NCBI GenBank assembly: GCA_036830315.1
Contig: DAISOU010000004.1
Location: 30,357 to 94,356 of the forward strand
Source of the DNA: Bacillota bacterium
GTDB taxonomy: Bacteria; Bacillota_I; Bacilli_A; RFN20; CAG-288
DNA: 64,000 bases
Direction: 5' to 3'
Of this stretch, positions 27,553 to 43,472 are shown in pieces. The notes under the pieces are model-generated. The model saw only the letters and a program-made list of their open reading frames with translations. It did no database searches and had not been told where the DNA came from. The position numbers and the translations under genes are program-made. Every line of letters starts with the position of its first letter. The first letter of the stretch is position 1.

Positions 27553-27947
27553 AATGCGTTAAGGCGGCAGCGGCAATGATCGTCTATAAAGATCGATTTC
27601 TGGTCGCTCAGAGAGGATACGGAGAATTCAAAGACTTCTGGGAGTTTCCTGGCGGAAAAGTAGAATTGAATGAACGGCCAGAAAATACGATTGTCCGAGA
27701 AATCAAAGAAGAATTAAATGCCGACATCATCGTTGATACTCTTATTACAGATATTGAACACGACTACGATTCATTTCATTTATCAATGAAATTATTTGCC
27801 TGCCATCTTAATAACTGTAGCATAGAGTTGCTTGAACATGAAGCTTCAAAATGGATCACTGTCGCTGAGCTGGATTCAATTGGTTTTCTGCCTGCTGACA
27901 AAAAGGCCCTGCCATTTATAAAAGACTATTTTACAAAGAAGAAGTAA
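27549..27947 (+). CDS. Nudix hydrolase (MutT/8-oxo-dGTP or CTP pyrophosphohydrolase-like).
   Basis: Nudix box GGKVELNERPENTIVREIKEELN. Start overlaps the helicase stop (ATGA). Confidence 0.85.
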   Translation: MKCVKAAAAMIVYKDRFLVAQRGYGEFKDFWEFPGGKVELNERPENTIVREIKEELNADIIVDTLITDIEHDYDSFHLSMKLFACHLNNCSIELLEHEASKWITVAELDSIGFLPADKKALPFIKDYFTKKK

Positions 27948-29328
27948 GTTTTTCTTTTATCTTTCTGTCGATATTTTCTACCTGTTCTTTCAGGTGTTCT
28001 TTCGTGCCGTCAGTCTTGAGGATGAAATCCAGTTTATGATGATTCTTATCATAGGAATTGAGGTTGTTGAATTTTAGGCGGTCTTCAATATCCTTATCTC
28101 CTCTTTCTTTCAGATGTTCTTCCTGTCTTGTTGTTTCACAGCCTATAAGATAAGTGAATCCTTTATCCATCTTGGCATCAAACAAAAGAGGTACTTCAAT
28201 CGCTTTATTGACATCGTCGTTATCGATGATGAACTCATTGACCCTTCTTCTGATGATGGAGAAGATGAAATTCTGATAGTTTCTTTTGAATGCTTTATCA
28301 GAAACGAGTTTTTCAGATACTAAGACTTTGTCTACTTCCGGATTAAAGACATCGGGAAATTTCTTTTTGAGTTCGGTAAGGAATGCTTTATCTTTGTAGA
28401 GTTTTCCGACTTCTTCATCACAGGACATAGTCTTATAGCCTAATTCTCTAAAATAGGATAGAGCGAGGCTTTTTCCTGAACCGATCTTACCGGTTATTGC
28501 TAAGGAGACTCCTGTATGCTGGCACTTAGGACAATATGAAGTTCCTCTTCCTTCCAGCTTTCTTTTTTCGATTTTGAAAGTCTTGCATCTAGTGCATTCT
28601 TTTCCGTCTCGGGAATAGACTTTGAGGAAATTTTGGAAAGACCCTTCTACATCTTCAGTGGCTTTATAGCTTCTGACAGTTGACCCGTGATTTTCAATTG
28701 ACTGAGTCAGGATTCTAATGGAATTTGAAAGGATATCTTCGCAGTTTTTCAAAGTAACTTTGTTTCCTGGCATAAAAGGAGAAATAGAGGAGGCAAAACA
28801 GACTTCATCAGCGTAGATATTGCCAAGTCCTGACATAATGGACTGATCCAAAAGGAGTTCTTTTATCGGTTTTTTCTTAGTTTTATAGATGTCAAACAGA
28901 TATTGAGGGTCATTGATTTCAAATGGTTCTCTTCCTAATTCTTCCAAAGGTCCTTCTTCGTCTTTTTTTAGATAATAGGAGACTCCGAACTTTCTGACAT
29001 CGTAAAATGCCAATCCTTCTTCATCGTTTCTGAAAGGAATGAAAAGTGACAGATGAGAAGAGGGGTGGCTTTCTTTATCGACCACGAATAATTTTCCTTC
29101 CATCCTCAGATGGAAAAGAACCTGATGGTCGTCGTTTAGAAGGAAGATCAAGAATTTTCCTCTTCTTCTTATTTCGAGTATGGTCTTATTTTCCAATCCC
29201 TGCACGTATTCGTTAAGAGGTGTTTTGATCATGCCTTTGAAAAAGACAACTGGTTTGTCAAAGGTCTTATTGACTATGCGTTTAGTCAATTCCCGTCTGA
29301 CAGTCTCGACTTCAGGAAGCTCTGGCAT
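27931..29328 (-). CDS. mutM: Fusion protein: formamidopyrimidine-DNA glycosylase (MutM/Fpg) joined to dephospho-CoA kinase (CoaE).
   Basis: N-terminus MPELPEVETVRREL, where the catalytic Pro2 requires a start at 29326-29328. Zinc finger CTRC…CPKC runs through a QHTG linker into the CoaE P-loop VSLAITGKIGSGKS with no stop codon. Confidence 0.75.
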   Translation of the reverse strand: MPELPEVETVRRELTKRIVNKTFDKPVVFFKGMIKTPLNEYVQGLENKTILEIRRRGKFLIFLLNDDHQVLFHLRMEGKLFVVDKESHPSSHLSLFIPFRNDEEGLAFYDVRKFGVSYYLKKDEEGPLEELGREPFEINDPQYLFDIYKTKKKPIKELLLDQSIMSGLGNIYADEVCFASSISPFMPGNKVTLKNCEDILSNSIRILTQSIENHGSTVRSYKATEDVEGSFQNFLKVYSRDGKECTRCKTFKIEKRKLEGRGTSYCPKCQHTGVSLAITGKIGSGKSLALSYFRELGYKTMSCDEEVGKLYKDKAFLTELKKKFPDVFNPEVDKVLVSEKLVSDKAFKRNYQNFIFSIIRRRVNEFIIDNDDVNKAIEVPLLFDAKMDKGFTYLIGCETTRQEEHLKERGDKDIEDRLKFNNLNSYDKNHHKLDFILKTDGTKEHLKEQVENIDRKIKEKLTSSL

Positions 29329-29329
29329 A

Positions 29330-31975
29330 TCAGTGGGCCTCATACCAGTCGACACTGGCTTCTCCTTCGACTTTGAAGGGAACATTCATACTTATGGCTT
29401 TCTCCATGCATTCTTTAAGGATAGGAAGTACTTTGTCAAGTTCATTGTCAGGTACTTTGAATAGGAGTTCATCGTGAATCTGAAGAATGATCTTTGTCTC
29501 ATATCCTTTTAGGGCATTTTGACATTTGACCATGGCGACTTTGATCAAGTCGGCCGCTGACCCCTGAATGACGGTATTGACAGCTGCTCTTTCCGAGAAT
29601 GACCTTAAGATTCTGTTAGTGGAATTGATATCCTTGAGATATCTTCTTCGGTTGAGGACAGTCGTCACATAGCCTTTTTCTCTGGCACTGTTTATACATT
29701 TGTTCTGGAATTCATCGACGCCTTCAAAACTGGCTTTGAAGCTCTTGATGAGATCAGAGGCTTCATCGCGGGGAATATCAAGCTGCTGGGAAAGACCAAA
29801 GGGAGAAATGCCGTAGACGATTCCAAAGTTGACAGCTTTTGCTTTTCTTCTCATTTCGCTGGTGACTTCATCAATGGGGACATTGAAGACACGGCTGGCC
29901 GTGGCTTTATGAATATCGTATCCTTCTCTGAAGATCTCTAAAAGAGCTTTGATGTTGCCGACGGAAGCTAAAACACGTAACTCAATCTGTGAATAATCCA
30001 GAGAGAGGATTTTATATTTGTGATCAGGATAGAAGAAGGCTTTTCTGATGTTCTTGCCTTCTTCATTTCGAATAGAAATATTCTGAAGATTAGGTTCAGA
30101 CATTGAAAGTCTTCCGGTAGAAGTCAGAGCCTGATTATAGATAGCGTGGATCTTATCATCTTTTCCAATGTGCTTAGGAAGAGAAGAAGTATAACCGGAT
30201 ACTAACTTGTTGTAGATTCTGTATTCCATGATGAGAGGAATAATCGGATGGTCTTCTTTATGGGCATTGAGAACATCGATTCCCGTTCCTTTTTCGCCCT
30301 TGAATTTGCTGATGCCTAAATCGGTAAAGAGAACTTCTTCGAGTTTCTTAGGTGAGTTGATATTGAATTCTTGATTGGCTAATCGATAAATTTCTCTTTG
30401 CAAAGAGGTTAATTTTAGCTGGTATTCATCATCGATACTCTTCAAAGTATCCAAATTGATCGGGAATCCTTCTATTTCCATCTTTGCCAAGAGATCGGCA
30501 AGTGGCATTTCTACATTTTGGAAAAGTTCAGTCTCTTCGTTGTTCTGAAGATCTTCGATGACTTTGTCTTTTAAATCCAGAGCATAGGAAAGAGTCTGAT
30601 AGGCGATATTCTTGTTGGCATCTAAGGAGATTCCATACGACAAGAAGAGAGAATCTCTTTTTTGCCCGCAGTCAGGATTGATAAGATATGTCGCCAAGAG
30701 AAGATCAAAGGTCACTCCTCTGATTTCTGGGTAAACATAGCGGCTCAAAAGAACAGACAGGCCCTTGAAATCATAGACCGTGAGTTCTTTCTTGTCGGCT
30801 TTCAAAAACTCTTTGAAGCTGTCGTCATTTTTGGCATCTGCTTCTTTAAGCTGATAGATATTGTCGTCTCCCCCTAAAAGGAAACTGTATAAAGAGGAAG
30901 TATTTTCGTTTTCGCCGCTTGCATCATAGGTGATTCCTAAAATATTTTCTTTTATTTCAGAAAAAGAAGATATTTCAATGAGTTTTCTTTCTTTATAGGG
31001 TGAAGCGTTTTCATCTTTGTTCTTCTCATCGTAAGAGGAGAAGAAAGAATCCAGAGACATCTGCATCGATTCCGATGTGTCTTTTATACCGGGCATTCTG
31101 TCGATAGAAGACAAGAACTGACTGAGTTGATAACGAAGATAGAATTTAGACAGTTTTCCTTTTTCATAGGGCTGGTACAAGGACTTGGAATAGGCTTCTT
31201 CCATATCTAAAGAGGTATCGATGGCTGCCAGCTTCTTTGAGAAAAGCGCATCTTCCTCTCCAGCGATGATCTTCTGATTGATTTTGCTGTCTGGATGTTC
31301 TTTGCAGAAAGCGATGACGTTCTCCAGGTGACCGTGTTCTTCCAGTAGCTTCTTAGCAGTCTTCTCTCCTACGCCTTTTATTCCTTTGTAGTTGTCGGAA
31401 CTGTCTCCGGCCATTCCCTTATAGTCGACTATCTGGTCGGCATTTAATCCGAAGGCATCATAGAGGTTATCCTGAGTCAGAACCAAGGTCTCGGAAAGAC
31501 CTTTTTTCAATAGTTCGACAGAGACGTTCTTTCCTAACTCCAAAAGCTGCAGAAAATCGTGATCGGAGGTGAAAAGACGGACTTCATCACCTTTTGAACT
31601 GGCATATTTAGCCATGGAACCGGCTAAGTCATCTCCTTCATAGCCCTCTTTTTCTTCCCAGTAGATATTCATGCTTTCCAGCATTTCTCTGGCTATTGGC
31701 ATCTGAGCGATAAGCTCAGAGGGAGCTGGTTTTCTCTGTGCCTTATAATCGGCAAACTCTTTTTTTCTCAGCGTCGGAGAACCGGTATCAAAGGCGACAA
31801 AGAGATTATCGCCTTCATTGATCTTCATCTTTATCTTTTTGATGAGATTATGAAAAGCGAAGATGGCATTGATCGGAATGTTATCTTTAGTCGTCATGAT
31901 GTTTCCAGTATAGGCAGTTGAATAATAGGCTCTGAAGAGAAGTGAATTGCCATCGACGATATAAGTTTTTTTCAT
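29330..31975 (-). CDS. polA: DNA polymerase I.
   Basis: 881 aa. 5-prime nuclease N-domain and C-terminal family A polymerase motifs (DYSQIELR, KAVNFGIVYG, QIHDELLF). Confidence 0.95.
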   Translation of the reverse strand: MKKTYIVDGNSLLFRAYYSTAYTGNIMTTKDNIPINAIFAFHNLIKKIKMKINEGDNLFVAFDTGSPTLRKKEFADYKAQRKPAPSELIAQMPIAREMLESMNIYWEEKEGYEGDDLAGSMAKYASSKGDEVRLFTSDHDFLQLLELGKNVSVELLKKGLSETLVLTQDNLYDAFGLNADQIVDYKGMAGDSSDNYKGIKGVGEKTAKKLLEEHGHLENVIAFCKEHPDSKINQKIIAGEEDALFSKKLAAIDTSLDMEEAYSKSLYQPYEKGKLSKFYLRYQLSQFLSSIDRMPGIKDTSESMQMSLDSFFSSYDEKNKDENASPYKERKLIEISSFSEIKENILGITYDASGENENTSSLYSFLLGGDDNIYQLKEADAKNDDSFKEFLKADKKELTVYDFKGLSVLLSRYVYPEIRGVTFDLLLATYLINPDCGQKRDSLFLSYGISLDANKNIAYQTLSYALDLKDKVIEDLQNNEETELFQNVEMPLADLLAKMEIEGFPINLDTLKSIDDEYQLKLTSLQREIYRLANQEFNINSPKKLEEVLFTDLGISKFKGEKGTGIDVLNAHKEDHPIIPLIMEYRIYNKLVSGYTSSLPKHIGKDDKIHAIYNQALTSTGRLSMSEPNLQNISIRNEEGKNIRKAFFYPDHKYKILSLDYSQIELRVLASVGNIKALLEIFREGYDIHKATASRVFNVPIDEVTSEMRRKAKAVNFGIVYGISPFGLSQQLDIPRDEASDLIKSFKASFEGVDEFQNKCINSAREKGYVTTVLNRRRYLKDINSTNRILRSFSERAAVNTVIQGSAADLIKVAMVKCQNALKGYETKIILQIHDELLFKVPDNELDKVLPILKECMEKAISMNVPFKVEGEASVDWYEAH

Positions 31976-34896
31976 TTTGTTACCTTCCTTCCAAGATATA
32001 TGAAGTCATAAGGAATGATTCGATTCCAGGAGAAGTCTCCGTTTACTAGGATAAAGGCATTCTTCAAAGCCTCTTTGCGTCCTTTGACTTCAATCTGGTA
32101 GTCTTTTCTGCCATCGGTTGCAACAAGATAATGATGCATTTCCAAGTCAGAATCGTCTGTGATTATAAGAGTCCTGTAGCCGTCTTTATGAGCTATTTTA
32201 TCTAAGTCTTCTGAGATAACGGAACCTAAGACGGTCTTTTCAAGATAGAGCCTTTTTCCGATGTCTTCTCCGTTCTTCTTAAGAGCGGGAACATTGGAAT
32301 CAGTGAATCCCATCTTGGCAAAAGACATGTAATCATCGAGTTTTGAAGACATCTCTTCTCGATTCTTCTCTAGAGAATCGAAGACACCGGCTTTAATGAG
32401 AGAATCGATGCTCTTCTCTTCGCTGAAAGAGACAAACTCCTCGGTTCTCTTACAGAATGAATAGAAACTTTGGAAGGGACCGCTTTTTTCTCTTTCGGCA
32501 ATTATCTTCTCAAGCAGATTCTTGTCAGTTGCGGAAACACCGGAAAAAGGCAGAAATATCTCTTTGTTCTTTATGAGGATGTCTTTGAGCTTTGAAGTGT
32601 TGATATCAGGTACTTTGATGACATATTGTCTCTTGTGGATTTCTTTCTGGAGAAAAGACATCTCAAGTGAAGAAAGAGAGGTGTTCTGCAAAGAGACTGA
32701 ATAGAATTCTTCAGGGAACAGGGCTTTATAATAAAGGAGTGTGTAGGAGATGAGGGCATAGCTATAGGAGTGAGACTTGTTGAAGCCGTAGTTGGCAAAT
32801 TTTTCGATGTCTTTATAGATGCTTTCGGCTGTTTCAGACTTGATTCCGTTTTTGATGGCCCCTTTGAGGAACTTGTCTTTATATTCTTCCATCTTCTGAA
32901 GATTCTTTTTTGAGATGGCACGGCGGAACAAGTCGGCATCGGAAGCCGTAAAGGAAGCTATTTCCTTAACGGCTTCGATGACCTGTTCCTGATAAATCAT
33001 GATTCCGTATGTGTCTTTAAGTATCTTATCTAATCTCGGATCGAGATAAGTGACTTTTTCAAGGCCGTCTTTTCGTTTGGCATAGGTGTTGATATAGGCC
33101 ATAGGTCCTGGTCGGTAAAGAGCAAGAAGAGCAGCCAGATCTTTGAAGCTGCTAGGCTTGAGAGTCTTGATGGCTTTTCTCATTCCGCTTTTCTCTAATT
33201 GGAATATATAGGCGAGATCTCCGTCATTCAGTATTTTGTAACAGAGCGGGTTATCAAGATCTGACATGATATTCGGAAGTGTCTTGGAATTGTCTTTGAT
33301 CTGTTTTTCGATGTTCTTGATGAAAGTTAGGTTAGACAAAGAGAGAATATCGCATTTCAAAAATCCCATTCTTTCCATATTGGGAAATTCATATAAGGCA
33401 ATACCGGTCTTTCCCTGACTCAAAGGACAGGATTTATATATTTCGTCTTCGTTGATGATGATGCCGGCTGGATGGTTAGAGGTATTGACCGGTATTCCCA
33501 GTAGGGAATCAGCTTTCATGACCAGATCTTTATAGTAGGGATCTTGAAGAAGGGCATCTAGTTTCGGTCCTTTGAAAGAGTCGTTTAAAGCGTCTTTGAA
33601 GTTGTCGGCAGTCTCAGGTATCGAGGAGGTGAGTTTTTTCAGTCTGACCGGAGAGAAAGAGAGAGCATTTCCGATGAGATTCAGGGCGCTTCTGGGTCTC
33701 AGTCTGACAAAAGTGATGATATCGGAGACATGAGTCTCACCATATCTTTTTCTGATATACGATATGACTTCGTTTCTGCGGTCATCTTCGAAATCAATAT
33801 CGATATCAGGCATATTGGATCTCTTGGGATTGAGGAATCTTTCAAAAGAAAAATCGCATTTGATCGGATCGAGAGCTGTGATATCTAGAGCATAAGTCAC
33901 TAATGATCCGGCAGCCGATCCTCTCCCTGGTCCGATCTTGATGCCTGAGCTTTTTGCAAAGCGGACATAATCCGAGACTAAGAGGAAATAAGAAGAGAAA
34001 TTCATTTTCCTTATCGTATCCAGTTCATAGGAGAGACGATTGATGTAGTTTTGAGGCAGGTCTTTGCCGATTTTGTTCATCAGTCCTTCAACAGCCATTT
34101 TCTCTAATTTGGAATTGTCGTCTGGAAAAGAGACGGGCTTTCCTCTTTTGGCAAAGAAATCAAAATGGCATTTGTCAGCCAGTTCAATAGTCCTATCCAT
34201 ATCTTCCTGGCGGTAAAGAGTTGACAGGGCTTTTTCGGACAAGAGAAAAAACGGTCCGGTTTCTGGTAGGATATCAACTTTTTCCTTCTTCAGTGCTTTA
34301 TACAGAAGAGCGGTTTTATAGGCGTCGCTTTTTCTGATATACAAAGACTTGGGGAAAGCGACAGTCTTGTATGAACAGTTGCTGCAGAAATCATATAAGG
34401 CTGGCATCTCATTGATATCGACTTCATTGGAGATGATTATTCCCACATAGAAGTCATCTTGGAAGATATGACTATAGCTGAAAAGCTGAGAGGCTATCGC
34501 ATTCAGATAGGCCAAATCGCGATAATCATCCCTTTCGGTATCTAAGACTAGTATCAGTCCTTCATGATATAAAGAGAGAATATCAGATCCTAGGACCTCT
34601 AGTTTTCTAGAGAGGATCTCACAGAGATTACGATAGCCCTGTTCGTTTTTGATATAGAGAACGCCGTCTAATGGCAATTTAAATGCGGTAGCCAGATTGA
34701 CTCGGCATCCGAATAAAGGCTTTAATCCATATGTTCTTGCACTATCGGCAAAGGAAGGATAACAGAAAAAAGAATGGTCTTTGACAGCCACTCCCTGGTA
34801 TCCGAGTTCTTTTGCTCTTTGACAGTATTCTTCAGGTAAGATTGAAGAATCTTTGAAGTCATAGGCAGTGATTGTGTTTAGCTGATAATAACTCAT
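31972..34896 (-). CDS. dnaE: DNA polymerase III alpha subunit (DnaE type).
   Basis: 974 aa. N-terminal PHP domain and a polymerase core. Overlaps polA by 4 nt. Confidence 0.85.
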   Translation of the reverse strand: MSYYQLNTITAYDFKDSSILPEEYCQRAKELGYQGVAVKDHSFFCYPSFADSARTYGLKPLFGCRVNLATAFKLPLDGVLYIKNEQGYRNLCEILSRKLEVLGSDILSLYHEGLILVLDTERDDYRDLAYLNAIASQLFSYSHIFQDDFYVGIIISNEVDINEMPALYDFCSNCSYKTVAFPKSLYIRKSDAYKTALLYKALKKEKVDILPETGPFFLLSEKALSTLYRQEDMDRTIELADKCHFDFFAKRGKPVSFPDDNSKLEKMAVEGLMNKIGKDLPQNYINRLSYELDTIRKMNFSSYFLLVSDYVRFAKSSGIKIGPGRGSAAGSLVTYALDITALDPIKCDFSFERFLNPKRSNMPDIDIDFEDDRRNEVISYIRKRYGETHVSDIITFVRLRPRSALNLIGNALSFSPVRLKKLTSSIPETADNFKDALNDSFKGPKLDALLQDPYYKDLVMKADSLLGIPVNTSNHPAGIIINEDEIYKSCPLSQGKTGIALYEFPNMERMGFLKCDILSLSNLTFIKNIEKQIKDNSKTLPNIMSDLDNPLCYKILNDGDLAYIFQLEKSGMRKAIKTLKPSSFKDLAALLALYRPGPMAYINTYAKRKDGLEKVTYLDPRLDKILKDTYGIMIYQEQVIEAVKEIASFTASDADLFRRAISKKNLQKMEEYKDKFLKGAIKNGIKSETAESIYKDIEKFANYGFNKSHSYSYALISYTLLYYKALFPEEFYSVSLQNTSLSSLEMSFLQKEIHKRQYVIKVPDINTSKLKDILIKNKEIFLPFSGVSATDKNLLEKIIAEREKSGPFQSFYSFCKRTEEFVSFSEEKSIDSLIKAGVFDSLEKNREEMSSKLDDYMSFAKMGFTDSNVPALKKNGEDIGKRLYLEKTVLGSVISEDLDKIAHKDGYRTLIITDDSDLEMHHYLVATDGRKDYQIEVKGRKEALKNAFILVNGDFSWNRIIPYDFIYLGRKVTK

Positions 34897-35010
34897 ATAT
34901 ATATTATAAACTAAAAACCTTAAGCCTTGTCTTACAATGAAATTTAATTAACAGACTAAACAGTATTTGTTTTCTTTTTTTAATGATATTGAGCAAATAC
35001 AGGCACAAAG

Positions 35011-35436
35011 CTATTCTTTGTTTTCTGTATTAGTTTTGATTTTAGTCAGGACGGCTAATGAATTTTCGTCAATATTGTTTTTCTTAAATGTGAACCAGGT
35101 TCTTGTATTATTTGAAACCATGATCTTATCTTCCTCTTCTTTATAATATTTGATTCTAAACGTGTATTCTTTATCGTTGCCGTCAGTAAAGACATAGATG
35201 TTTTCTTTTTTGATTTTGACTGATTGGCAGTTTATTTTACCTACCTGTCTTCCTATTGTATAAACTAAGGCGATGAAAAAACTGATAAGTAATGCGATTG
35301 CCAGGCAGACATATACTTCTGGTGTATTGAATTTCTTTTCGTTCCTGATCAGGAATAAACCTAATACTATGCCGTCAATTACTTCTAATAGGACTAATGA
35401 TATATAGAGAATGATATATTTTTTTCTTTCTTTCAT
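35011..35436 (-). CDS. Hypothetical small membrane protein in an AT-rich islet.
   Basis: 141 aa, two TM helices, very low GC. Confidence 0.4.
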   Translation of the reverse strand: MKERKKYIILYISLVLLEVIDGIVLGLFLIRNEKKFNTPEVYVCLAIALLISFFIALVYTIGRQVGKINCQSVKIKKENIYVFTDGNDKEYTFRIKYYKEEEDKIMVSNNTRTWFTFKKNNIDENSLAVLTKIKTNTENKE

Positions 35437-35615
35437 TTCAGATATGCGTTAAGTTCTCCTTCAGTTTTAAACCCGTAGACTTTGCCGTCAATAGGACTTC
35501 CTTCAGTGTCGTAATCAATGAACGAATCATTATATTTATTTGTGTCCGTCGATCGATATAGCGGAGACCAATTTAGATAATTTTCATTTTCAAAATGATA
35601 TCTATATTTTAACAT
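35433..35615 (-). CDS. Hypothetical 60-aa protein, possibly co-translated with the downstream membrane protein.
   Basis: 4-nt overlap with the next ORF. No recognisable motif. Confidence 0.3.
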   Translation of the reverse strand: MLKYRYHFENENYLNWSPLYRSTDTNKYNDSFIDYDTEGSPIDGKVYGFKTEGELNAYLK

Positions 35616-35829
35616 TACTACTTCTTGTTCGTTACTTCTATTTTGAATTCATAGTTTTTTGACTATGAATTAGAACACAAAAATATTATTGATGTTACTT
35701 AGTTCCTGAAAATGGAACACTTTTACAAATGATAGATTGATATCTTATCAATAATATCGGCTATTTGCGGAACAACTATTAATAATATTGTGCCCCTATT
35801 ATATATTTTTGGTTAGAGAGATAATATAT

Positions 35830-36416
35830 AAGCAACCAGCTGCAGATGATCTTATCGATCGGCTGGACGGTATCCGAATAAGGGTTTCGCAGGGATACCT
35901 GTGAAATAAACAAATGTCCTGTTTTGAAAGGAACAGGGGAGGCAGATGAAACTGCCTCTCGGAAATCGGTGCATCGTCATCTTAAAGCTAAGCTAATGGA
36001 TGGGACAGGGACGCAAAGGCGGGAAACCGTCTACCTCTTGCCTCAGTGTGAGAAACTGAGGAAAAAACCAGGAGGCATTCTCAAAAGAAAGTCCTCGGAG
36101 TTGATTGTCAGGTAACTGGCTATAATGTCCTGTTCAGGTACTGGTAGGGGAATTCTCCAAAAAGAACCATGAATTTGGCTCAAAAATAAAGAAAACAATC
36201 CGACGTTCCCTGAAAGTAAGTGACCGATAGAGTCATTATCAACTAGATCCTCGAAAGGGGATAGCCAGAATAGAGCAGCAGTCGCTCTGTTGCCCTCGGA
36301 TTCTGGTTTTGATTAAGCTATTAAGCACAGGATGAAACGATGTAAGGCGAAAGCCTGCATTTTATCAAAACACAGCTGCTTCTGCTCAGGAACTGAGTCG
36401 GCAGCTGTTTTTGTTT
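35830..36416 (+). ncRNA. Candidate large structured non-coding RNA of unknown class (OLE/ROOL/GOLLD-like size range).
   Basis: GC-enriched ~590 nt block with no credible ORF. At least five hairpins are capped by GNRA-type loops (…GAAA…). It ends in a strong intrinsic terminator. Confidence 0.45.
36373..36416 (+). terminator. Rho-independent terminator closing the candidate ncRNA.
   Basis: Outer stem cagctgc / gcagctg, inner stem ctcag / ctgag, then TTTTTGTTT. Confidence 0.7.
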
Positions 36417-36573
36417 ATCAGATAGATTCTGTATTCTTTGGTAGTTCCTCTTTTTGTCTCTTATCTGTATCAAAGTCTTCTAGTTGAGGGAAGAAAGAAA
36501 AAACATTCCTTTTCTTCCTTTACTCTTCTTCGTTTTCGGTTTATATTCAATAGCAAGAAAGAAGAACAAACAC

Positions 36574-37317
36574 ATGGATGACAATATCATCTTCGGAAGA
36601 ATACCGGTTAAGAACGCTTTGACTGCAGGCAAAAGAAGACCTATCAGGGTTTTTCTCAACGCCGCGCACCCAGAACAGGAAATCCTGGACTTGGCAAGAA
36701 AAAGGAACGTCCCTGTAAAAATGGTTTCTTTTGAAGAATTATCCCGTTTATCGAATCATCTTAATAATCAGGGAGCAGTCTGTTCTCTTCCAGATTTTGA
36801 ATATGCAGATTTGGATGAAACTCTTAAAGATATCAAGGATCATACTGAATCCACCCTGGTTATGCTGGACGGCATTGAAGACCCTGTTAATTTCGGTTCA
36901 ATCATTCGTTCCTCAACTGCTTTTGGAATCGACGGAATAATCATCGGCAAGAACCGTCAGGTTCCTGTTACCGGTACTGTATCCAAGATTGCGACGGGCG
37001 GAGAAGAACTTCTTCCTATTATTCAGGTGACCAATCTCACAAGAACTCTCGATACTTTGAAAAAAGCAGGATATTGGGTTGTAGCCTCAGCCGGCGAAGG
37101 AAAAGACACTTATGACCAGATCAATTATTCCGGAAAGATTGTTCTGATTATCGGTTCTGAAGGTTTCGGAGTTTCCGATTTAGTCAGAAAGAATTCTGAT
37201 TTTGTCGCCTCTATTCCTTTAGATGGCCCTGTCAAAGCATTAAATGCCTCGATAGCCTGTGCCGTTTTCTTATCTGAGATTAATTCTTATAGACGCAAAA
37301 AGAATTCTAAGAAGTAA
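36574..37317 (+). CDS. rlmB: TrmH/SpoU family 23S rRNA 2'-O-methyltransferase (RlmB-like).
   Basis: N-terminus IIFGRIPVKNAL plus a SpoU methylase C-domain. The upstream TTG-started extension is hydrophobic, so I rejected it. Confidence 0.7.
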   Translation: MDDNIIFGRIPVKNALTAGKRRPIRVFLNAAHPEQEILDLARKRNVPVKMVSFEELSRLSNHLNNQGAVCSLPDFEYADLDETLKDIKDHTESTLVMLDGIEDPVNFGSIIRSSTAFGIDGIIIGKNRQVPVTGTVSKIATGGEELLPIIQVTNLTRTLDTLKKAGYWVVASAGEGKDTYDQINYSGKIVLIIGSEGFGVSDLVRKNSDFVASIPLDGPVKALNASIACAVFLSEINSYRRKKNSKK

Positions 37318-37350
37318 CATATAAAAAAGAGCTAATAAAAGGAGGTTTCT

Positions 37351-38061
37351 ATGAAAACCATCTCTTTAAGGCACACTGCATCTGTGCCTTTTTCAACCAA
37401 CTCTGTTTTCTGTGTGTTCGTTAAGGGATTGACTGAGGGAGAAGATAATTTCTTTCCTAAGAACTCCTATGAATTTTCCGGATATAACATCAATGAATTG
37501 GTGATCATGGCAAAGCACAGCCGGGAAGCCATGGACGAATATCTTAAGAGAATCCAATTTCTGATATATAAAGAAGCCAGTATATTCAATAAGATCAATC
37601 GCTATTTGGATTTTAACGATGTGTATTCTACCCTTTTTCATACTTCGCTTCAGGCCGTAAAGATCTATGACAGAAGAAAAGGTAATTTCATGAATCTCTT
37701 TCGAAAAATGGTCAAAATGTCTCTGAGATTCTTCAACAGCAATCATTGTAAATCCTATTACCGTGGGCTGAAGAATTATGGCTGCAGAATCAGGGCTGTC
37801 ACTGACTTGAACTCTTTTGCTGATTGTGTTCAGACTCCTTCTTCATCAGATTTGACTGAAGATATAAAACTGCAGGCGGATTTTGAAAGCTATTATAGTG
37901 AATTGACTCCTTTGGAACAGAAAATAATCTCGATGTATATCAATAAATTCTCCATCAGAGATATCAGTATTGCCGTAGATGAAAGCTGTTCGACTGTCTC
38001 TTACAAGATCTATCTGATGCTGGAAGACCTAAAAGCCTGGGAGAAAAGAAAACAGATATAA
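37351..38061 (+). CDS. sigH: Sigma-70 family sigma factor, SigH-like.
   Basis: C-terminal region-4 HTH SIRDISIAVDESCSTVSYKIYLMLEDLKAWEK resembles B. subtilis SigH. Position after rlmB mirrors B. subtilis yacO-yacP-sigH. Strong RBS AAGGAGG. Confidence 0.55.
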   Translation: MKTISLRHTASVPFSTNSVFCVFVKGLTEGEDNFFPKNSYEFSGYNINELVIMAKHSREAMDEYLKRIQFLIYKEASIFNKINRYLDFNDVYSTLFHTSLQAVKIYDRRKGNFMNLFRKMVKMSLRFFNSNHCKSYYRGLKNYGCRIRAVTDLNSFADCVQTPSSSDLTEDIKLQADFESYYSELTPLEQKIISMYINKFSIRDISIAVDESCSTVSYKIYLMLEDLKAWEKRKQI

Positions 38062-38122
38062 GGTTTAAACTATAAAGAAAGAGCCGTTTAACTTATAATC
38101 TATGTATAAGAGAGATAAATAA

Positions 38123-39034
38123 ATGGCTGACTTAATGATTTCCGTTATCGTTCCTGTCTATCAGGTTGAAAAATATCTTAATGAATGTCTTGATTCATTG
38201 GTTAAACAAGACATCAAAGAAAGATATGAAATACTTCTTATTGATTTTGGAAGCACTGACAGCAGTTCTAAAATCTGTCATGAGTATGCTTTCAAGTATC
38301 CTAATCTGGTTACTTGGATTAAGAAGGATGAGAATTACGGAGTGTCGGCAAGTCGTAATGTCGGAATATCTCTTGCCAATGGAAAGTATGTCACCTTTAT
38401 CGATTCAGATGATTTTGTGAGAAAAGACTATCTTTCATCTTTGTTCTCTTATGCCAAGGATGACAAATATGAAATCATCACTGGCGGTTATTATCTTTAC
38501 AAAAAGAAAAAGAGGCCTGGTTATTCGAGGACTTCTTATCAAGGCGAAGGCATAAGCTGTCTTAAAAAACTATACCAAAGTCCCTTTTTGAAATTCAGAA
38601 CTTTTTGCTGGGGCCGTCTGATTAGACTGTCTCTTTTGCGTGACAACCATATAAGATTCGATGATGACCTGAATCAGTATGAAGACTGGCCTTTTATATT
38701 CAAATGCCTGTATTTTGCAAAGAAAGCCATATATTTCAAGAAACCAATTTATTATTACCGCCAAAGAACCGATTCGGTTATGAAGGGGACCAGCGATTTT
38801 GTCACTCCTCATATCGAAGTTTTGAGAAGAACAAAGGAATTTTTAGCTCCTCGAGACGAGAAGAGTACTAGAATCTTATTTGACAAACCTCACTTTGCCA
38901 TCAAGTCACAGATTAGATTCGACTGCCATGAGTCGGCGAAAAAACTTGATACCAGCTCCTCTCTTTTATATAAGAAAGCCAAGAAGGAACTTATTTCTGT
39001 CTTTGATCAGAACAAGGTTCTCAAAGGAGAATAA
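38123..39034 (+). CDS. Glycosyltransferase family 2.
   Basis: ISVIVPVYQVEKYL…FIDSDDF (DxD). Confidence 0.8.
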   Translation: MADLMISVIVPVYQVEKYLNECLDSLVKQDIKERYEILLIDFGSTDSSSKICHEYAFKYPNLVTWIKKDENYGVSASRNVGISLANGKYVTFIDSDDFVRKDYLSSLFSYAKDDKYEIITGGYYLYKKKKRPGYSRTSYQGEGISCLKKLYQSPFLKFRTFCWGRLIRLSLLRDNHIRFDDDLNQYEDWPFIFKCLYFAKKAIYFKKPIYYYRQRTDSVMKGTSDFVTPHIEVLRRTKEFLAPRDEKSTRILFDKPHFAIKSQIRFDCHESAKKLDTSSSLLYKKAKKELISVFDQNKVLKGE

Positions 39035-39035
39035 A

Positions 39036-39884
39036 ATGACTGACAAAAGATTTGGCGAATGCCTTAAAAAGCTCTACTTCGACAGAGATCCTAAGTCTAA
39101 TAAAGGCGATTTCGGACGTGCCCTCTTGATAGGAGGAAGCTCTTCTTATCCGGGTGCGATTGTCATCGCTTCAAAATTAGCCGAAGTATCCGGTGACGGA
39201 TATACAGGAATCAGAGTGCCTGACGATATTTTTCCAATCGTGGCTTCCAAAGTCACTCCGCTCGATGTCTTCGAACATTTCTATATTGAAGACATCACTC
39301 CTGTTTTAAAATACGACTCTCTGCTTTTCGGAAACGGAATGGAAGTAAGTTCTCTCAATTACGAGCTTTTGAAAAAGATTGTCAGTGTCTATCAGGGGAA
39401 GATGATTATCGATGGTTCGGGACTATCTATTTTAGCTAAGTACGGAGATGGTTTTCTCCAAAATACCGGCAGCCGTATTCTGCTCACTCCCCATCTGAAA
39501 GAGGCCTCTCTTTTATTCAAAATGGACAGTGTCAGCAAAGAGCCGTCAGATTATCTTGAAAAAGCCAAAGAATATGCTAAGACGCATGATGTCTATATAC
39601 TTCTTAAAAGTTATCAGTCCATTCTGATAACACCTGATGGGGAAGATGAGATTTCTTCGGATACTGGCGCTGTTGCCTTGGCTAAGGCCGGTTCGGGAGA
39701 TGGACTGGCTGGTTTTCTGGCGGGACTTTTAGCTTATGGTCCAAAGCTTGTCGGCACAAAAGACACGATTCTCTTCGGAGACTTTTTCTTCCATCGGGCA
39801 GCTTCTTTATTGATCACCGGTTTTGAGACTGTTCTCAATCTTCCCGCCTTGATAAAAGAACTTCTGATCAATGATGATAAATAG
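39036..39884 (+). CDS. ADP-dependent NAD(P)H-hydrate dehydratase (YjeF C-terminal / Nnr family).
   Basis: KGDFGRALLIGGSSSYPGA and the C-terminal GSGD motif. RBS AAAGGAGA. Start is 1 nt after the GT2 stop. Confidence 0.8.
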   Translation: MTDKRFGECLKKLYFDRDPKSNKGDFGRALLIGGSSSYPGAIVIASKLAEVSGDGYTGIRVPDDIFPIVASKVTPLDVFEHFYIEDITPVLKYDSLLFGNGMEVSSLNYELLKKIVSVYQGKMIIDGSGLSILAKYGDGFLQNTGSRILLTPHLKEASLLFKMDSVSKEPSDYLEKAKEYAKTHDVYILLKSYQSILITPDGEDEISSDTGAVALAKAGSGDGLAGFLAGLLAYGPKLVGTKDTILFGDFFFHRAASLLITGFETVLNLPALIKELLINDDK

Positions 39885-39927
39885 AATTTAAATATTATTT
39901 GATAAGTTGTCTGTCTGCAAAAATAAA

Positions 39928-39966
39928 ATAGGCTACAGGTTATTTTTCCTGTAGCCTATATTTTTA
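39928..39966. terminator. Bidirectional terminator between nnr (+) and pepF (-).
   Basis: 12-bp stem ataggctacagg / cctgtagcctat flanked by an A-run and a T-run. Confidence 0.7.
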
Positions 39967-41694
39967 CTTATCTAATTCAGAAGGATTGAACTGACCTAAG
40001 TAGTCCATAATCTGCTGACTGACATCTTTTAAGGTGTCACCGTCCATCGGGTTTGCGATATCGGCTTTCTTGAGAAGGGCACGGAAGGGAAGAGTGCCGG
40101 CCAGTTTATCGAAGGCGATGTATTTGTCAAAGGCCTTCTTAGGATCGACACGGGACTCATTGAAGAACTCAAGAGAGACAACCTGAGCGATAGTGTAATC
40201 GAGATAATAGAGAGGATTCTCGAAGATGTGATGCTGTCTCATCCACCAGCCGCCTGATTCCAGGAATTCATTGCCGGCATAGTTCTTATGAGGCAAGTAG
40301 GCTTTTTCAAGCTTTCTCCAATAGGCTTTTCTTTCTTCATGAGTGATATCGGGATTCTCATAGACATAAGTCTGGAAACCGTCGACAATACAGCCATAGG
40401 GGATAAAGGTGATGGCATCGCAGAGGTGCTGATACTTGTATTTGTCAGTATCCTGTTTGAAGAAGTACTTCATCCAGGGATAGGTCAGGTATTCCATGGA
40501 CATGGAATGCATTTCACAGCACTCCATACCGGGATTTCGATAAGCGGGGACTTCCTGATCTCCACCTAAGAATCCCTGTAATGAATGACCGAATTCATGG
40601 GTCAGAGTATCGACATCGGCACCGGTTCCGTTGAAGTTGGCGAAGATGAAGGAGGTCTTAAGACCAGAGACATAGCACATGAATCCGCCACCGGCTTTGC
40701 CAGGCTTTGCAACTAGATCTAAGCAGTTGTGTTCGACCATGAAATCAAAGTACTTCTCAGTGATAGGGGATAACTCGGCATACATCTTCTGAGCGGCAGC
40801 GACAAGTTCCTCAGGTTTTCCTTTGGGAGTCGGATTGCCAGACTTATAGAAGATCGCGTAATCGTAGTATTTGGTATCTTTTCCAAAGCCAAGTCTTTCC
40901 TTCTGGGCCTTGCAGATATTTTCAGAAAGGGGAACGATATAATCTAAAATCTTCTGTCTGTAGGAAGAAGCATCTTTAGGAGTCCAATCAAGTCTTCCCA
41001 TTCTGTCATAGGCTAACTGCAGGAAATTATCGTATCCGAGAGTCTTGGCAATCTTGGTTCTGACTTTGACCATGCGGTCATAGATATCGCCGATTTTTTT
41101 GTCGTTTTCAGCATAGAAGGCCCAGACTAGCTTATTGGCTTCCGCTCTTACTTTTCTATCGGAGCTAGAAGTATATTTTCCCATCTGAGGGATAGAAAGC
41201 TTCTTTCCTTCATAATCGATTAGAGCACCTGCCATCAGATTGATGTATTCGGAGACTAACTTGTTCTCTTCGATGAGCATGGGAACGATTTCCGGAGAGA
41301 AGGTCTTCATCGATAAAGCAGTCTCTTCAAAGAGCAGCTTTCCAAATTTGTCTTCTAAATCCTTGCGGTACTTTGAATTATAGAGGTCGTTGTCGACTTT
41401 GTTGGAGGCCTCACTGATTTCAGGACCGATAAGATCGATGAGATCATTGAGCTTGCTATACTCTTCGTTTCTGGTGTCGATATTGTGTCTTATTCCGACG
41501 AGGTTGAAGACAGTTCCGATATCATCTGAAAGAGTGAAGTAGTCCTTTACGGCCTTGATAGCTTCGTCTTTGTTCTTGGCACCGGTGAGTCTCTTGTCGA
41601 TTTCGTCAATGGCAGCGATGATTTCTTCTTTATTGGGGGTCTCAATCTTCACTTGATCGAATTTGTCAAATTTTCCATTAAAATGTTGAATCAT
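39964..41694 (-). CDS. pepF: Oligoendopeptidase F (M3 family).
   Basis: HEFGH zinc motif, 576 aa. Confidence 0.9.
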   Translation of the reverse strand: MIQHFNGKFDKFDQVKIETPNKEEIIAAIDEIDKRLTGAKNKDEAIKAVKDYFTLSDDIGTVFNLVGIRHNIDTRNEEYSKLNDLIDLIGPEISEASNKVDNDLYNSKYRKDLEDKFGKLLFEETALSMKTFSPEIVPMLIEENKLVSEYINLMAGALIDYEGKKLSIPQMGKYTSSSDRKVRAEANKLVWAFYAENDKKIGDIYDRMVKVRTKIAKTLGYDNFLQLAYDRMGRLDWTPKDASSYRQKILDYIVPLSENICKAQKERLGFGKDTKYYDYAIFYKSGNPTPKGKPEELVAAAQKMYAELSPITEKYFDFMVEHNCLDLVAKPGKAGGGFMCYVSGLKTSFIFANFNGTGADVDTLTHEFGHSLQGFLGGDQEVPAYRNPGMECCEMHSMSMEYLTYPWMKYFFKQDTDKYKYQHLCDAITFIPYGCIVDGFQTYVYENPDITHEERKAYWRKLEKAYLPHKNYAGNEFLESGGWWMRQHHIFENPLYYLDYTIAQVVSLEFFNESRVDPKKAFDKYIAFDKLAGTLPFRALLKKADIANPMDGDTLKDVSQQIMDYLGQFNPSELDK

Positions 41695-41807
41695 TATGGG
41701 TTGTCCTTTCTTTGAAAATCAAACTACTGATATTATATCTGATTATCTTCATTTAGAAAGAGAAAAGGCATAAGTGAAGATGGATGTTCTCTTTTGTCTT
41801 CTACTTA

Positions 41808-43316
41808 TCAAAGGTGATAGATTTCTGTGTATTTCTCTGTCAGATAGTCAATATACGGTTTGGCAGAGAATTCTTCCCCGGTGATTTTCTTAATCCAGTC
41901 TTTAGTATCAAGAAGGGCGGCATCCTTGAAGACATTTTCTTTCATCCAAGACAGAATATCGTTCATTCTTCCTTCTCTGACAGTGGTTTCAAATCCGATG
42001 TCTTTATCTAACTTCTTGACATAGATGCAGTTGAGGGCATTACCTAAGGCGTAGGTGGGGAAGTATCCAAATCCGCTTGTCCAATGAACATCCTGGAGAA
42101 TACCGGTTCTGTCATCCTTGTTGTCAACGCCAAGTATTTCCTTATAGAGCCTATTCCATTCCTGATTGAGATTCTTGAAATCAGCCTTATTGTTCATGAT
42201 TTCTCTCTCGAGGCGATAACGGATGATGATGTGAAGAGAATAAGTGAGCTCATCAGCCTCAGTTCTCAGAGGATTGTCCAGATCGACATAGTTGACTCCC
42301 TCATAGAAATCATTCTCGCTGACATCACCCATCTCTTCCTTGAAGATCTTCATGAAACTAGGATAGATGGCATGGATGTAGTTTTTGTTTCTTCCGATGA
42401 TGTTTTCATAGAAGCGGGAGACCGATTCATGTTTGGCCATGGAAAGGAAACTCTCTCCTAAGTGATGAGAAAACACTTCGTCAGGAATATTCTGACCGAA
42501 GAGAGCATGACCGCCTTCATGAATGACAGAATACATATTGGAAATAAAGTTGTTTTCATAATAATGAGTTGTAACTCTCACATCGTTTTGACCAAGCTGA
42601 GATGTGAAAGGATGAATGGTAGTCGATACTGATCCTCTTTTGAAATCAAAACCGTTGAACTTCAGTATCTCAGTCGTGAACTGTTCCTGTTTGGAGATAG
42701 GCACTAATCTTTTGAGGAAATCGTGACGGGGTATGTAGGTGGAGTTTCTGACTTTCTCTAAAAGGGGTTTGATTCCTTTTTCAAGTTCATCAAAGAACTT
42801 GTCTAAGTCAGAAGAAGTGAATCCCTCTTCATAGTCGGAAAAGAGGGTATTGTAGAGATTCTTCTGGTCACAGTCCGGTCTTAAAAGAAGAAGCTTCTTC
42901 TCCATTTTGAAGACTTCTTCTAAAGTAGGGGAGTATTCGGAATAATCGTTGTCTTCTTTGGCTTTTGCCCAGACCATATAGGCTTTGTTGAATAACTCTG
43001 AAGCTCTCATGTTGTCTTCGGGAGTGATATTCTCACTGTCTCTGATGGTTTTGTGAAGCTCTTTGACAAGTCTTTGATCATAGATACTCAGTTCTGAATA
43101 TTCTTTCTCATAGAGTTTGTTGACTATTGAAATGAATTCTTTGCTTTTTTCAATCTTATAAGCTTGGTTGGAGAAGAAGGACATATCTCTTCCGTCTTCT
43201 TCCATTCCGCCTTCCGGAGCAGCGGTCTCCATATCGTAGCTGATTATCTGTGACGCGTGATTGAAAAGCTCTATTCCTGTCAACATATCGTATAGTTCTT
43301 TGATTTCTTTACTCAT
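41808..43316 (-). CDS. M32 family carboxypeptidase (Taq carboxypeptidase-like).
   Basis: HEGGHALFGQN, DVHW…GFGYFPTYALG. Start chosen at the internal M preceded by a GAGGT SD. Confidence 0.85.
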   Translation of the reverse strand: MSKEIKELYDMLTGIELFNHASQIISYDMETAAPEGGMEEDGRDMSFFSNQAYKIEKSKEFISIVNKLYEKEYSELSIYDQRLVKELHKTIRDSENITPEDNMRASELFNKAYMVWAKAKEDNDYSEYSPTLEEVFKMEKKLLLLRPDCDQKNLYNTLFSDYEEGFTSSDLDKFFDELEKGIKPLLEKVRNSTYIPRHDFLKRLVPISKQEQFTTEILKFNGFDFKRGSVSTTIHPFTSQLGQNDVRVTTHYYENNFISNMYSVIHEGGHALFGQNIPDEVFSHHLGESFLSMAKHESVSRFYENIIGRNKNYIHAIYPSFMKIFKEEMGDVSENDFYEGVNYVDLDNPLRTEADELTYSLHIIIRYRLEREIMNNKADFKNLNQEWNRLYKEILGVDNKDDRTGILQDVHWTSGFGYFPTYALGNALNCIYVKKLDKDIGFETTVREGRMNDILSWMKENVFKDAALLDTKDWIKKITGEEFSAKPYIDYLTEKYTEIYHL

Positions 43317-43472
43317 TGTCTTAACCTCGATAGTTAGCATTATAAAACAAAAGCGACATCAGGCATACTCAATTGACATCATATAATTGACAATAATCAG
43401 TGTTTTTTCTGATTCTTCTATGTTTAGGATAATAATGAAAAACTTTGTTTGAAGTCTTATAATTGTCTCATC

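Follow-up and report, generated by a model that had tools for sequence, protein, structure and literature searches.

A ROOL-family RNA at a tRNA-free chromosomal locus of a Bacillota bacterium

The locus and its genes

The window analysed here, a stretch of 64,000 nucleotides (64 kb) from contig DAISOU010000004.1 of a Bacillota bacterium, carries a large RNA in the core chromosome, between orf60, orf141, dnaE and polA on the minus strand and rlmB on the plus strand (Table 1). The plus-strand neighbours are rlmB, a weak sigma-70-like gene, a GT2 glycosyltransferase gene and nnrD. RlmB matches TIGR00186 (202.5 bits; cutoff 160). The first-pass annotation of this DNA had named dnaE, rlmB and the sigma-factor-like gene correctly, although the sigma assignment is a weak one (22.8 bits, below cutoff). 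The same annotation placed the RNA between dnaE and rlmB, which is accurate on the right; on the left, however, two small minus-strand ORFs (35011-35436 and 35433-35615) come before dnaE.

The gene tables, which cover ~54 kb (~8-62 kb of the window), contain housekeeping genes only (infC-rpmI-rplT, ezrA, thiI, pnp, argS, ychF, ispF and others) and no phage gene. ARAGORN found no tRNA or tmRNA in the 64 kb, and the Rfam scan was likewise without a tRNA. The same contig occurs in several metagenome assemblies.

Table 1. Coordinates of the features at the locus, numbered from the first letter of the window (helix names as explained in the text).
Feature	Position	Strand	Basis and remarks
orf141, orphan ORF upstream of dnaE; two N-terminal hydrophobic segments seen by eye	35011-35436	−	One homologue cluster
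orf60, small acidic ORF divergent from the ROOL	35433-35615	−	Gene called in public assemblies; 88% amino-acid identity in sister lineage
Predicted sigma-70-type promoter of the ROOL	35779-35807	+	−35 TTAATA (35779-35784), 17-nt spacer, −10 TATATT (35802-35807); consensus scan
ROOL RNA (RF03087), full length	35812-36376	+	cmscan 173.4 bits; MFE z = −6.4
P2 apical hairpin GAUC-UUAUC-GAUC	35848-35860	+	Rfam alignment; L2 (35852-35856) corresponds to bridge B1 loop of env-120
P3b hairpin, GAAA tetraloop 35926-35929	35917-35938	+	Identical in sister lineage
12-bp long-range helix, 5′ strand (P10, own mapping)	35996-36007	+	Square brackets in Rfam consensus; pairs with 36126-36137
Apical P7 hairpin AGGCGG-GAAA-CCGUCU	36017-36032	+	Loop GAAA here, GCAA in sister lineage, both GNRA
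L8 loop GUGAGAA	36048-36054	+	36049-36054 (UGAGAA) complementary to 36078-36083; corresponds to env-120 G307-A310, bridge B4
J6/8 linker segment UUCUCA	36078-36083	+	Partner of L8; inter-subunit kissing contact B4
P9 hairpin, 5-bp stem, GNRA loop GUAA (36112-36115)	36107-36120	+	A-minor bridge B2 position
P10 long-range helix, 3′ strand	36126-36137	+	Rfam alignment
Variable A-rich linker, loop of P11 hairpin, 53 nt	36153-36205	+	Aligned to unstructured loop of Rfam model
3′ flank of linker, UCCGA, 5′ half of third pseudoknot	36199-36203	+	Pairs with 36296-36300
P18 long hairpin; L18 loop UCGCU (36282-36286), GC palindrome (36284-36285), internal loop UCGGA (36296-36300)	36263-36308	+	Loop identical to Rfam consensus
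3′-terminal hairpin AGGC-GAAA-GCCU (P19, own mapping)	36345-36356	+	Rfam alignment, hairpin scan
Predicted intrinsic terminator	36372-36416	+	Interrupted stem 36372-36407, −24.1 kcal/mol, then TTTTTGTTT (36408-36416)
Separate promoter-like site for rlmB (TTTACT, 17 nt, TATATT)	36519-36547	+	Consensus scan; rlmB start 36574

Assignment to the ROOL family

ROOL RNAs, found in bacteria and phages, are large molecules that assemble by themselves into hollow cages made of RNA only; the family was described in 2017 (Weinberg et al., 2017; PMC5737381). A search of the 64-kb window with cmscan (Rfam 15, gathering thresholds) returned a single match, ROOL (RF03087), at 35812-36376 of the plus strand. 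The match runs end to end over the model (1-574 of 574), is not truncated and scores 173.4 bits (E = 4.1e-37), which is 74 bits above the gathering score of 99.1. At 565 nt the RNA compares with a family mean of 581. The first-pass annotation had called the block unassigned and had put forward a cmscan against Rfam as the check; that check gives this full-length ROOL match, so the RNA is no longer unassigned and, by the annotation's own refuting criterion, its novelty is gone. Relaxing the cutoff to E ≤ 1 over 35400-36700 added only FuFi-1, at chance level (19 bits against a gathering score of 59.6). GOLLD, OLE, raiA, tmRNA, RNase P and SRP gave no covariance-model match, either at gathering score in the 64-kb window or at E ≤ 1 in 35400-36700. 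Among the four look-alikes named in the first-pass annotation (OLE, ROOL, GOLLD and a raiA-like RNA), ROOL is the one with an Rfam match.

The composition of the block is in line with what had been seen by eye. Its G+C content of 0.44-0.48 is higher than the 0.27-0.33 of the spacer and small ORFs on its left, as reported. Under a strict definition (a GNRA tetraloop closed by at least four pairs), the RNA contains five GNRA-tetraloop hairpins in its 565 nt, the maximum for any 565-nt stretch in the 64-kb window, where the mean is 0.58. The minimum free energy (MFE) of the plus strand is −190.8 kcal/mol (z = −6.4 against 100 dinucleotide shuffles), and the minus strand gives z = −3.8 against dinucleotide shuffles. 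The five hairpins quoted in the first-pass annotation each occur once in the window, at 35919, 35939, 36041, 36249 and 36344. Their description as perfect hairpins with GAAA-type loops is right as to their presence and GNRA-rich character, but two of the loops are not tetraloops (AUGAAA in P3c and GUGAGAA in L8, a kissing loop) and several stems contain G-U pairs. A further proposed hairpin, GGTATCC (35869) with GGATACC (35893), consists of two segments which are present and complementary, yet they are unpaired with each other in both the family fold and the MFE fold. The broader description of a large, independently terminated, GNRA-rich structured ncRNA without a real ORF stands. We give a probability of about 0.95 to the reading that 35812-36376 holds a complete RNA of the known ROOL family, encoded by a stand-alone gene whose ncRNA transcript is ~600 nt long.

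Transcription signals

The predicted ROOL promoter agrees with the consensus at 9 of 12 positions, and the start that it predicts (~35813-35816) coincides with the first position of the Rfam model. In a sister lineage that carries the ROOL at the same locus, the −10 region (35795-35810) is 100% identical, against a difference of 16.8% for the spacer as a whole. At the other end, the stem of the predicted terminator starts where helix P1 ends. Owing to an internal loop in the stem, it escaped a simple terminator scan; the strong terminator of the first-pass annotation is nonetheless there, a hairpin of −24.1 kcal/mol followed by TTTTTGTTT. Its counterpart in the sister lineage is of similar energy (−23.8 kcal/mol), with U36377:A36403 replaced by C:G, a compensatory change, and C36376:G36404 by U-G. 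A spacer of 157 nt separates the terminator from rlmB, which has a promoter-like site of its own. Promoter and terminator are predictions from sequence, and together the promoter-like site and strong terminator suggest a stand-alone gene and not an rlmB leader. The ROOL would be transcribed from its own sigma-70-type promoter (~35779-35807) and end at its own terminator (36372-36416), giving ~600 nt.

Structural anatomy

With the Rfam consensus structure projected on it, the sequence carries 150 of the 159 model pairs; 125 are canonical. The Rfam register includes ~25 non-canonical pairs and is weakest in the outer helix P1. When aligned by hand from the sequence, P1 reaches seven of eight pairs (GAUAAUAU at 35820-35827 with AUUUUAUC at 36359-36366), and the MFE fold joins the same two ends. 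Helix numbers follow Kretsch et al. as far as they can be mapped, the mapping being our own.

All three ROOL pseudoknots are present. The long-range helix P10 has 11 of its 12 pairs standard, three of these being G-U. The second, a covarying pseudoknot in the family, joins loop L8 to the linker J6/8 (next section). The third pseudoknot joins UCCGA (36199-36203) to UCGGA (36296-36300) in the internal loop of P18 (J17/18). A tally of candidate ROOLs gives UCUGA/UCAGA as the pair type in most and GCUGA/UCAGC in others. A zone-based comparison of own with mismatched partners for this pseudoknot gave 88% against 79% at ≥ 5 nt with zones that were too long, and only the pair-type tally was used.

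Subunit contacts and expected assembly

The solved ROOLs tabulated in a recent review are env-120 (9MDS), Enterococcus faecalis (9J3T) and Ligilactobacillus salivarius (9J6Y) (PMC12990946), and the ROOL of Firmicutes bacterium CAG:227 is also cited as a protein-free dihedral assembly. The solved RNAs form protein-free dihedral cages ~28 nm across, octamers or a hexamer, which are stable at nanomolar RNA. The variable linker is disordered in these cages and lies inside, facing the cavity.

Several of the elements that hold neighbouring chains together in env-120 are recognisable in the window. In the cryo-EM structure, G307-A310 pairs with U332-C335 between neighbouring chains (bridge B4). The corresponding L8 motif UGAGAA (36049-36054) and J6/8 motif UUCUCA (36078-36083), read directly from the sequence, make six Watson-Crick pairs. 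The two inner pairs carry substitutions in both strands when compared with env-120 (GGUA/UACC) and with the Rfam consensus (UGGCA/UGCCA); compensatory change has thus kept the complementarity. Bridge B2 of env-120 is an A-minor contact in which G364-A365-A366 touches G62 of the neighbouring chain, and at its position L9 has the GNRA loop GUAA. The symmetric bridge B6 is formed in env-120 by G565:C566′; L18 of the window copy, UCGCU, is the same as the Rfam consensus and carries a self-complementary GC at that position.

Two other bridges are less readily traced. For B1, L2 has UUAUC, to which the aligned segment CAAU immediately 5′ of UCCGA shows no complementarity, and a search for another partner of 4 bp or more found none. 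The loop-bulge contact B3 is absent, as apical P7 is a plain stem of 4-6 bp with a GAAA (or GCAA) loop that lacks the bulge and the loop bases used by env-120. According to the ROOL structure paper P7 is not always conserved, and the missing B3 feature is therefore not family-defining. The length of the apical P7 stem has been linked to 6-mer or 8-mer assembly in the solved ROOLs (PMC12990946).

Because the elements of B4, B6 and B2 and the overall fold are kept, it is likely, by analogy, that this ROOL assembles as the solved ones do. With B1 lacking an evident partner and the B3 bases missing, neither assembly nor stoichiometry is guaranteed here, and the choice between a 6-mer and an 8-mer cannot be predicted from sequence. 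The transcript would fold as a ROOL, with multistem junctions, the 12-bp long-range helix and two further pseudoknots, and would most probably build a protein-free hollow dihedral homo-oligomer of eight or six chains. The holding contacts would be the L8-J6/8 kissing interaction, the A-minor contact of the L9 GNRA loop and the symmetric GC pair of L18, and the A-rich linker would point into the cavity. Roles discussed for the cage are the encapsulation or storage of macromolecules such as tRNAs (PMC12990946). No biological role for ROOL was reported in the literature searched.

Comparison with other ROOLs and ornate RNAs

A degenerate pattern built on motifs conserved in ROOLs picked out 81 viral candidate loci and at least 120 metagenomic ones. 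When 11 of these were tested against Rfam, ten proved to be ROOLs (141-354 bits). At 173 bits, the window copy lies at the low end of this range and is thus a divergent member of the family. Of 23 candidate ROOL loci, 18 have tRNA genes in the flanking sequence fetched, often as arrays of 10-36 with a tmRNA, and so do nine of the ten verified loci. When L8-type loops of the candidate ROOLs are matched with their own linkers, 69% show complementarity of 4 nt or more and 12% of 6 nt or more; with mismatched linkers the fractions are 28% and 1%. The heuristic L8 finders behind these figures (a 7-nt loop; the last MFE hairpin) often chose the wrong stem, and they served only this own-versus-mismatched statistic and a table checked by eye.

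Close relatives of this RNA are confined to the organism and its sister lineage: other ROOLs reach 32-36 bits on a domain model which scores 197 on itself. Built on the window sequence alone, a covariance model for the P10 domain found 20 of ~200 loci, with ragged alignments. A blastn search with the RNA against 50,697 phage genomes gave no match, which is explained by ROOLs sharing too little primary sequence. The window sequence was also not found by text search of the published ROOL alignment, a gapped and incomplete file.

The two small ORFs on the left give little indication of a partner. Homologues of orf141 form a single cluster at 89% identity among 5.8 billion proteins, and neither orf141 nor orf60 has a match in Pfam, PHROG, NCBIfam or PADLOC. 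Neither adjoins any other ROOL, and orf141 is absent at ~200 other candidate ROOL loci. Since the small ORFs match no family and are absent beside other ROOLs, there is no evidence of a protein partner.

The window copy resembles the rest of the family in its full-length model match, in the long-range helix and both other pseudoknots, and in being a stand-alone unit. It also shares the L8-J6/8 complementarity, the L18 sequence UCGCU, GNRA loops at L9, P3b and P19, and an A-rich variable linker. It differs in its place in the core chromosome, with no tRNA or phage gene, whereas most ROOLs lie in phage or prophage tRNA arrays. Further differences are the use of UGAGAA/UUCUCA for L8 and J6/8 and of UCCGA/UCGGA for the third pseudoknot, the apical P7, which is a plain GNRA hairpin, and the B1 contact, which is not evident. 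Copies outside prophages have been noted before (Weinberg et al., 2017; PMC5737381), and E. faecalis is known to have ROOL in its chromosome (PMC12990946).

GOLLD is likewise a large ornate RNA of bacteria and phages with a GNRA-rich look that forms RNA-only cages (10- to 14-mers), but its sequence and secondary structure are different, it exceeds 800 nt, and it has no Rfam match here. OLE is similar as an ornate ncRNA of ~600 nt in Firmicutes, encoded chromosomally among housekeeping genes. However, OLE is a dimer that works with proteins (e.g., RpsU) in extremophilic anaerobes, and it too has no Rfam match at this locus.

Divergence between lineages

The sister lineage, ~10-12% diverged, is represented by contigs with the same locus (L266, which is short, and L287-L289), among which L287 spans both flanks. 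The ROOL differs at 20 of 565 positions (3.5%). This compares with 57 of 362 (15.7%) in flanking non-coding DNA (p = 1e-10), 9.0% in dnaE (p = 3e-6) and 11.8% in polA (p = 1e-10). Left of ~36428 everything but the ROOL is 7-19% diverged (helicase 12.4%, mutM-coaE 12.6%, orf141 7.0%, orf60 8.7%, spacer 16.8%, terminator 19%), and right of that point, from rlmB to pepF, divergence is 0-0.3%. The right flank is probably a recent recombination tract with its edge just 3′ of the ROOL terminator. Within the ROOL the 20 changes show an even distribution, and its low divergence is thus not a mosaic effect. A hypervariable island of ROOL, orf60 and orf141, considered on the basis of L266, was dropped, as L287 shows the whole left flank to be 9-13% diverged and the right flank (~0.1%) to be the anomaly.

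The kinds of change also fit an RNA under structural constraint, judging from the alignment of the two lineages. In P18, C36265:G36306 becomes U:A, a compensatory replacement; two other changes swap G-U and Watson-Crick pairs, and the P7 loop goes from GAAA to GCAA with GNRA retained. Only 2-3 of the 20 changes weaken a pair. The linker (36153-36205) holds four of the 20, an enrichment that is not significant (p = 0.11), and in the sister lineage a 1-nt deletion puts a 63-aa ORF within the RNA (35924-36115) out of frame. A change of 3.5%, below that of dnaE and polA, indicates strong purifying selection on the ROOL.

The nearest species-representative genomes have only 53% DnaE identity. One of them (L004) keeps the order pepF-nnrD-GT2-rlmB next to dnaE-polA, with ~260 nt between rlmB and dnaE, and another (L006) keeps rlmB and the sigma-like gene beside dnaE-polA; neither has a ROOL between rlmB and dnaE. 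The ROOL, orf60 and orf141 are absent from both, which makes them lineage-specific with respect to the nearest genomes.

Alternative explanations

The first-pass annotation had also offered the block as a long regulatory leader for rlmB-sigH. Read in this way, the RNA would be a cis-regulatory element of the rlmB-sigma operon, cotranscribed with it and attenuated at the terminator; it does lie on the rlmB strand directly upstream, and the terminator could in principle serve as an attenuator. Yet the whole element is explained by ROOL, which is not cis-regulatory and stands beside unrelated genes elsewhere, and the terminator stem, itself with a compensatory substitution, abuts the closing helix P1 with no competing anti-terminator evident. 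Since the 157-nt spacer and the separate promoter-like site come before rlmB, since L004 and L006 keep rlmB next to dnaE without any such element, and since a recombination boundary falls between the ROOL with its terminator and rlmB, a leader is extremely improbable and that proposal is not upheld. The chance that the block is instead another ornate or housekeeping RNA (OLE, GOLLD, raiA, tmRNA, RNase P or SRP), or codes for the 63-aa ORF, is close to nil. Its size and GNRA density do recall OLE and GOLLD and a 63-codon ORF exists, but none of these RNAs matches in Rfam at E ≤ 1, ARAGORN finds no tmRNA, and the ORF is low-complexity and broken in the sister lineage.

It is also very unlikely that the RNA is a decaying, non-functional relic of a phage- or plasmid-borne ROOL that was inserted long ago. 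ROOLs occur mostly in phages and prophages beside tRNA arrays (18 of 23 candidate loci have tRNAs), the block of ROOL, orf60 and orf141 is missing from the nearest genomes, and the Rfam score is at the low end, all of which a relic would fit. Against this, the RNA is full length with its pseudoknots and contact motifs intact, it evolves 3-5 times slower than its flanks and slower than dnaE and polA while accumulating compensatory changes, the promoter −10 and the terminator are maintained, and the 54 kb examined are free of phage genes.

Discussion

The analysis establishes the family membership of the RNA, its structural elements, its predicted transcription signals, its chromosomal context and the strong purifying selection on it. 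It is a known family in a mildly unusual context, and what is left of interest is that the copy is chromosomal, tRNA-free and apparently vertically inherited. As ROOLs outside prophages (Weinberg et al., 2017; PMC5737381) and chromosomal copies in E. faecalis (PMC12990946) are already known, the addition is a modest one. The variants UGAGAA/UUCUCA and UCCGA/UCGGA at subunit contacts may be used for testing assembly rules.

Few natural RNAs are known to form a closed cage unaided by protein, and ROOL is among them. Because most ROOLs travel with phage tRNA arrays, current guesses at the role of the cage centre on tRNA storage or phage biology. A chromosomal, tRNA-free ROOL under constraint tighter than that on dnaE and polA points to some hosts keeping ROOL for themselves. 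We hold tentatively, at somewhat less than even odds, that this ROOL is kept by its host and is not a phage passenger, and that vertical descent has maintained it at a single chromosomal site in two lineages ~10-12% diverged. If so, the cage would have a role in the cell that is independent of phage infection and of cotranscribed tRNAs, and a search for that role would find its cleanest natural context at loci of this kind.

Divergence switch at the 3' end of the ROOL locus

Alignment with a contig of a sister lineage that carries the same ROOL locus and spans both of its flanks (L287) revealed an abrupt change in divergence at window position ~36428. To the left (27022-36428), the two genomes differ by 9-19% across dnaE, polA, mutM-coaE, the helicase gene and the spacers. 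To the right (36429-43438), divergence falls to 0-0.3% from rlmB to pepF, over at least 5 kb, with an increase to 1.1% in the gene encoding the M32 peptidase. The junction is present in several independent assemblies, which makes an assembly chimera unlikely. The low-divergence right side appears to be a tract of recent recombination or transfer, with its edge just 3' of the ROOL terminator.

Genes and spacer left of ROOL

Two protein genes of note lie on the left side (see table). A single ORF combines the Fpg/MutM domains (Fapy_DNA_glyco and H2TH) with dephospho-CoA kinase (CoaE), an apparent MutM-CoaE fusion. PLD-like, DEAD/ResIII helicase, DUF8090 and DUF3427 domains make up the product of the second gene, which has no obvious function among its housekeeping neighbours and is followed by a NUDIX gene.

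Upstream of dnaE and on the same strand are orf60 and orf141, which overlap by 4 nt. Both are orphans with no match in any family library, and orf141 has a single homologue cluster among 5.8 billion proteins. Two hydrophobic segments were read by eye at the N-terminus of orf141. Amino-acid identity to the sister lineage is 88-89% for the two small ORFs versus 94.8% for DnaE and PolA, indicating that the small ORFs evolve faster. The spacer between orf60 and ROOL, 17% diverged between the lineages, holds three inverted repeats that could serve as operators or a terminator for divergent promoters.

Features left of and within ROOL (window coordinates)
Feature	Position	Strand	Sequence or length	Sister lineage
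Helicase-type gene	24730-27552	+	940 aa	
MutM-CoaE ORF	27931-29385	-	484 aa	470 aa
orf141	35011-35436	-		
orf60	35433-35615	-		
Inverted repeat 1	35648-35669		TTCATAG..CTATGAA	substitutions in both arms
Inverted repeat 2	35703-35719		GTTCC..GGAAC	both arms kept
Inverted repeat 3	35738-35752		TTGATA-TCT-TATCAA	identical
Heptamer 1	35869-35875		GGUAUCC	
Heptamer 2	35893-35899		GGAUACC	

Structured RNA in the window and at other ROOL loci

ROOL is the sole Rfam family at gathering score in window 1-64000. At that score, no riboswitch, T-box or ribosomal-protein leader was found in the 64 kb, and no Rfam leader even upstream of the infC-rpmI-rplT genes. Dense tRNA arrays surround other ROOL loci (L175, 1-10736; L260, 5870-8527; the viral contig L098, 8238-8409). 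L175 packs 34 tRNAs into 10.7 kb, together with a tmRNA and a tRNA-SeC call, the tmRNA of L260 lies 1.7 kb from its ROOL, and L098 has two neighbouring tRNAs with the amber-reading CUA anticodon. L109 and L229 contain group I introns.

Within the ROOL copy studied here, the two heptamers are perfectly complementary. In the consensus fold of the family, however, they have separate roles: one is a strand of helix P3, and the other spans the conserved motif GGAUAC at the loop of P3a. Their complementarity could reflect an alternative or transient pairing.
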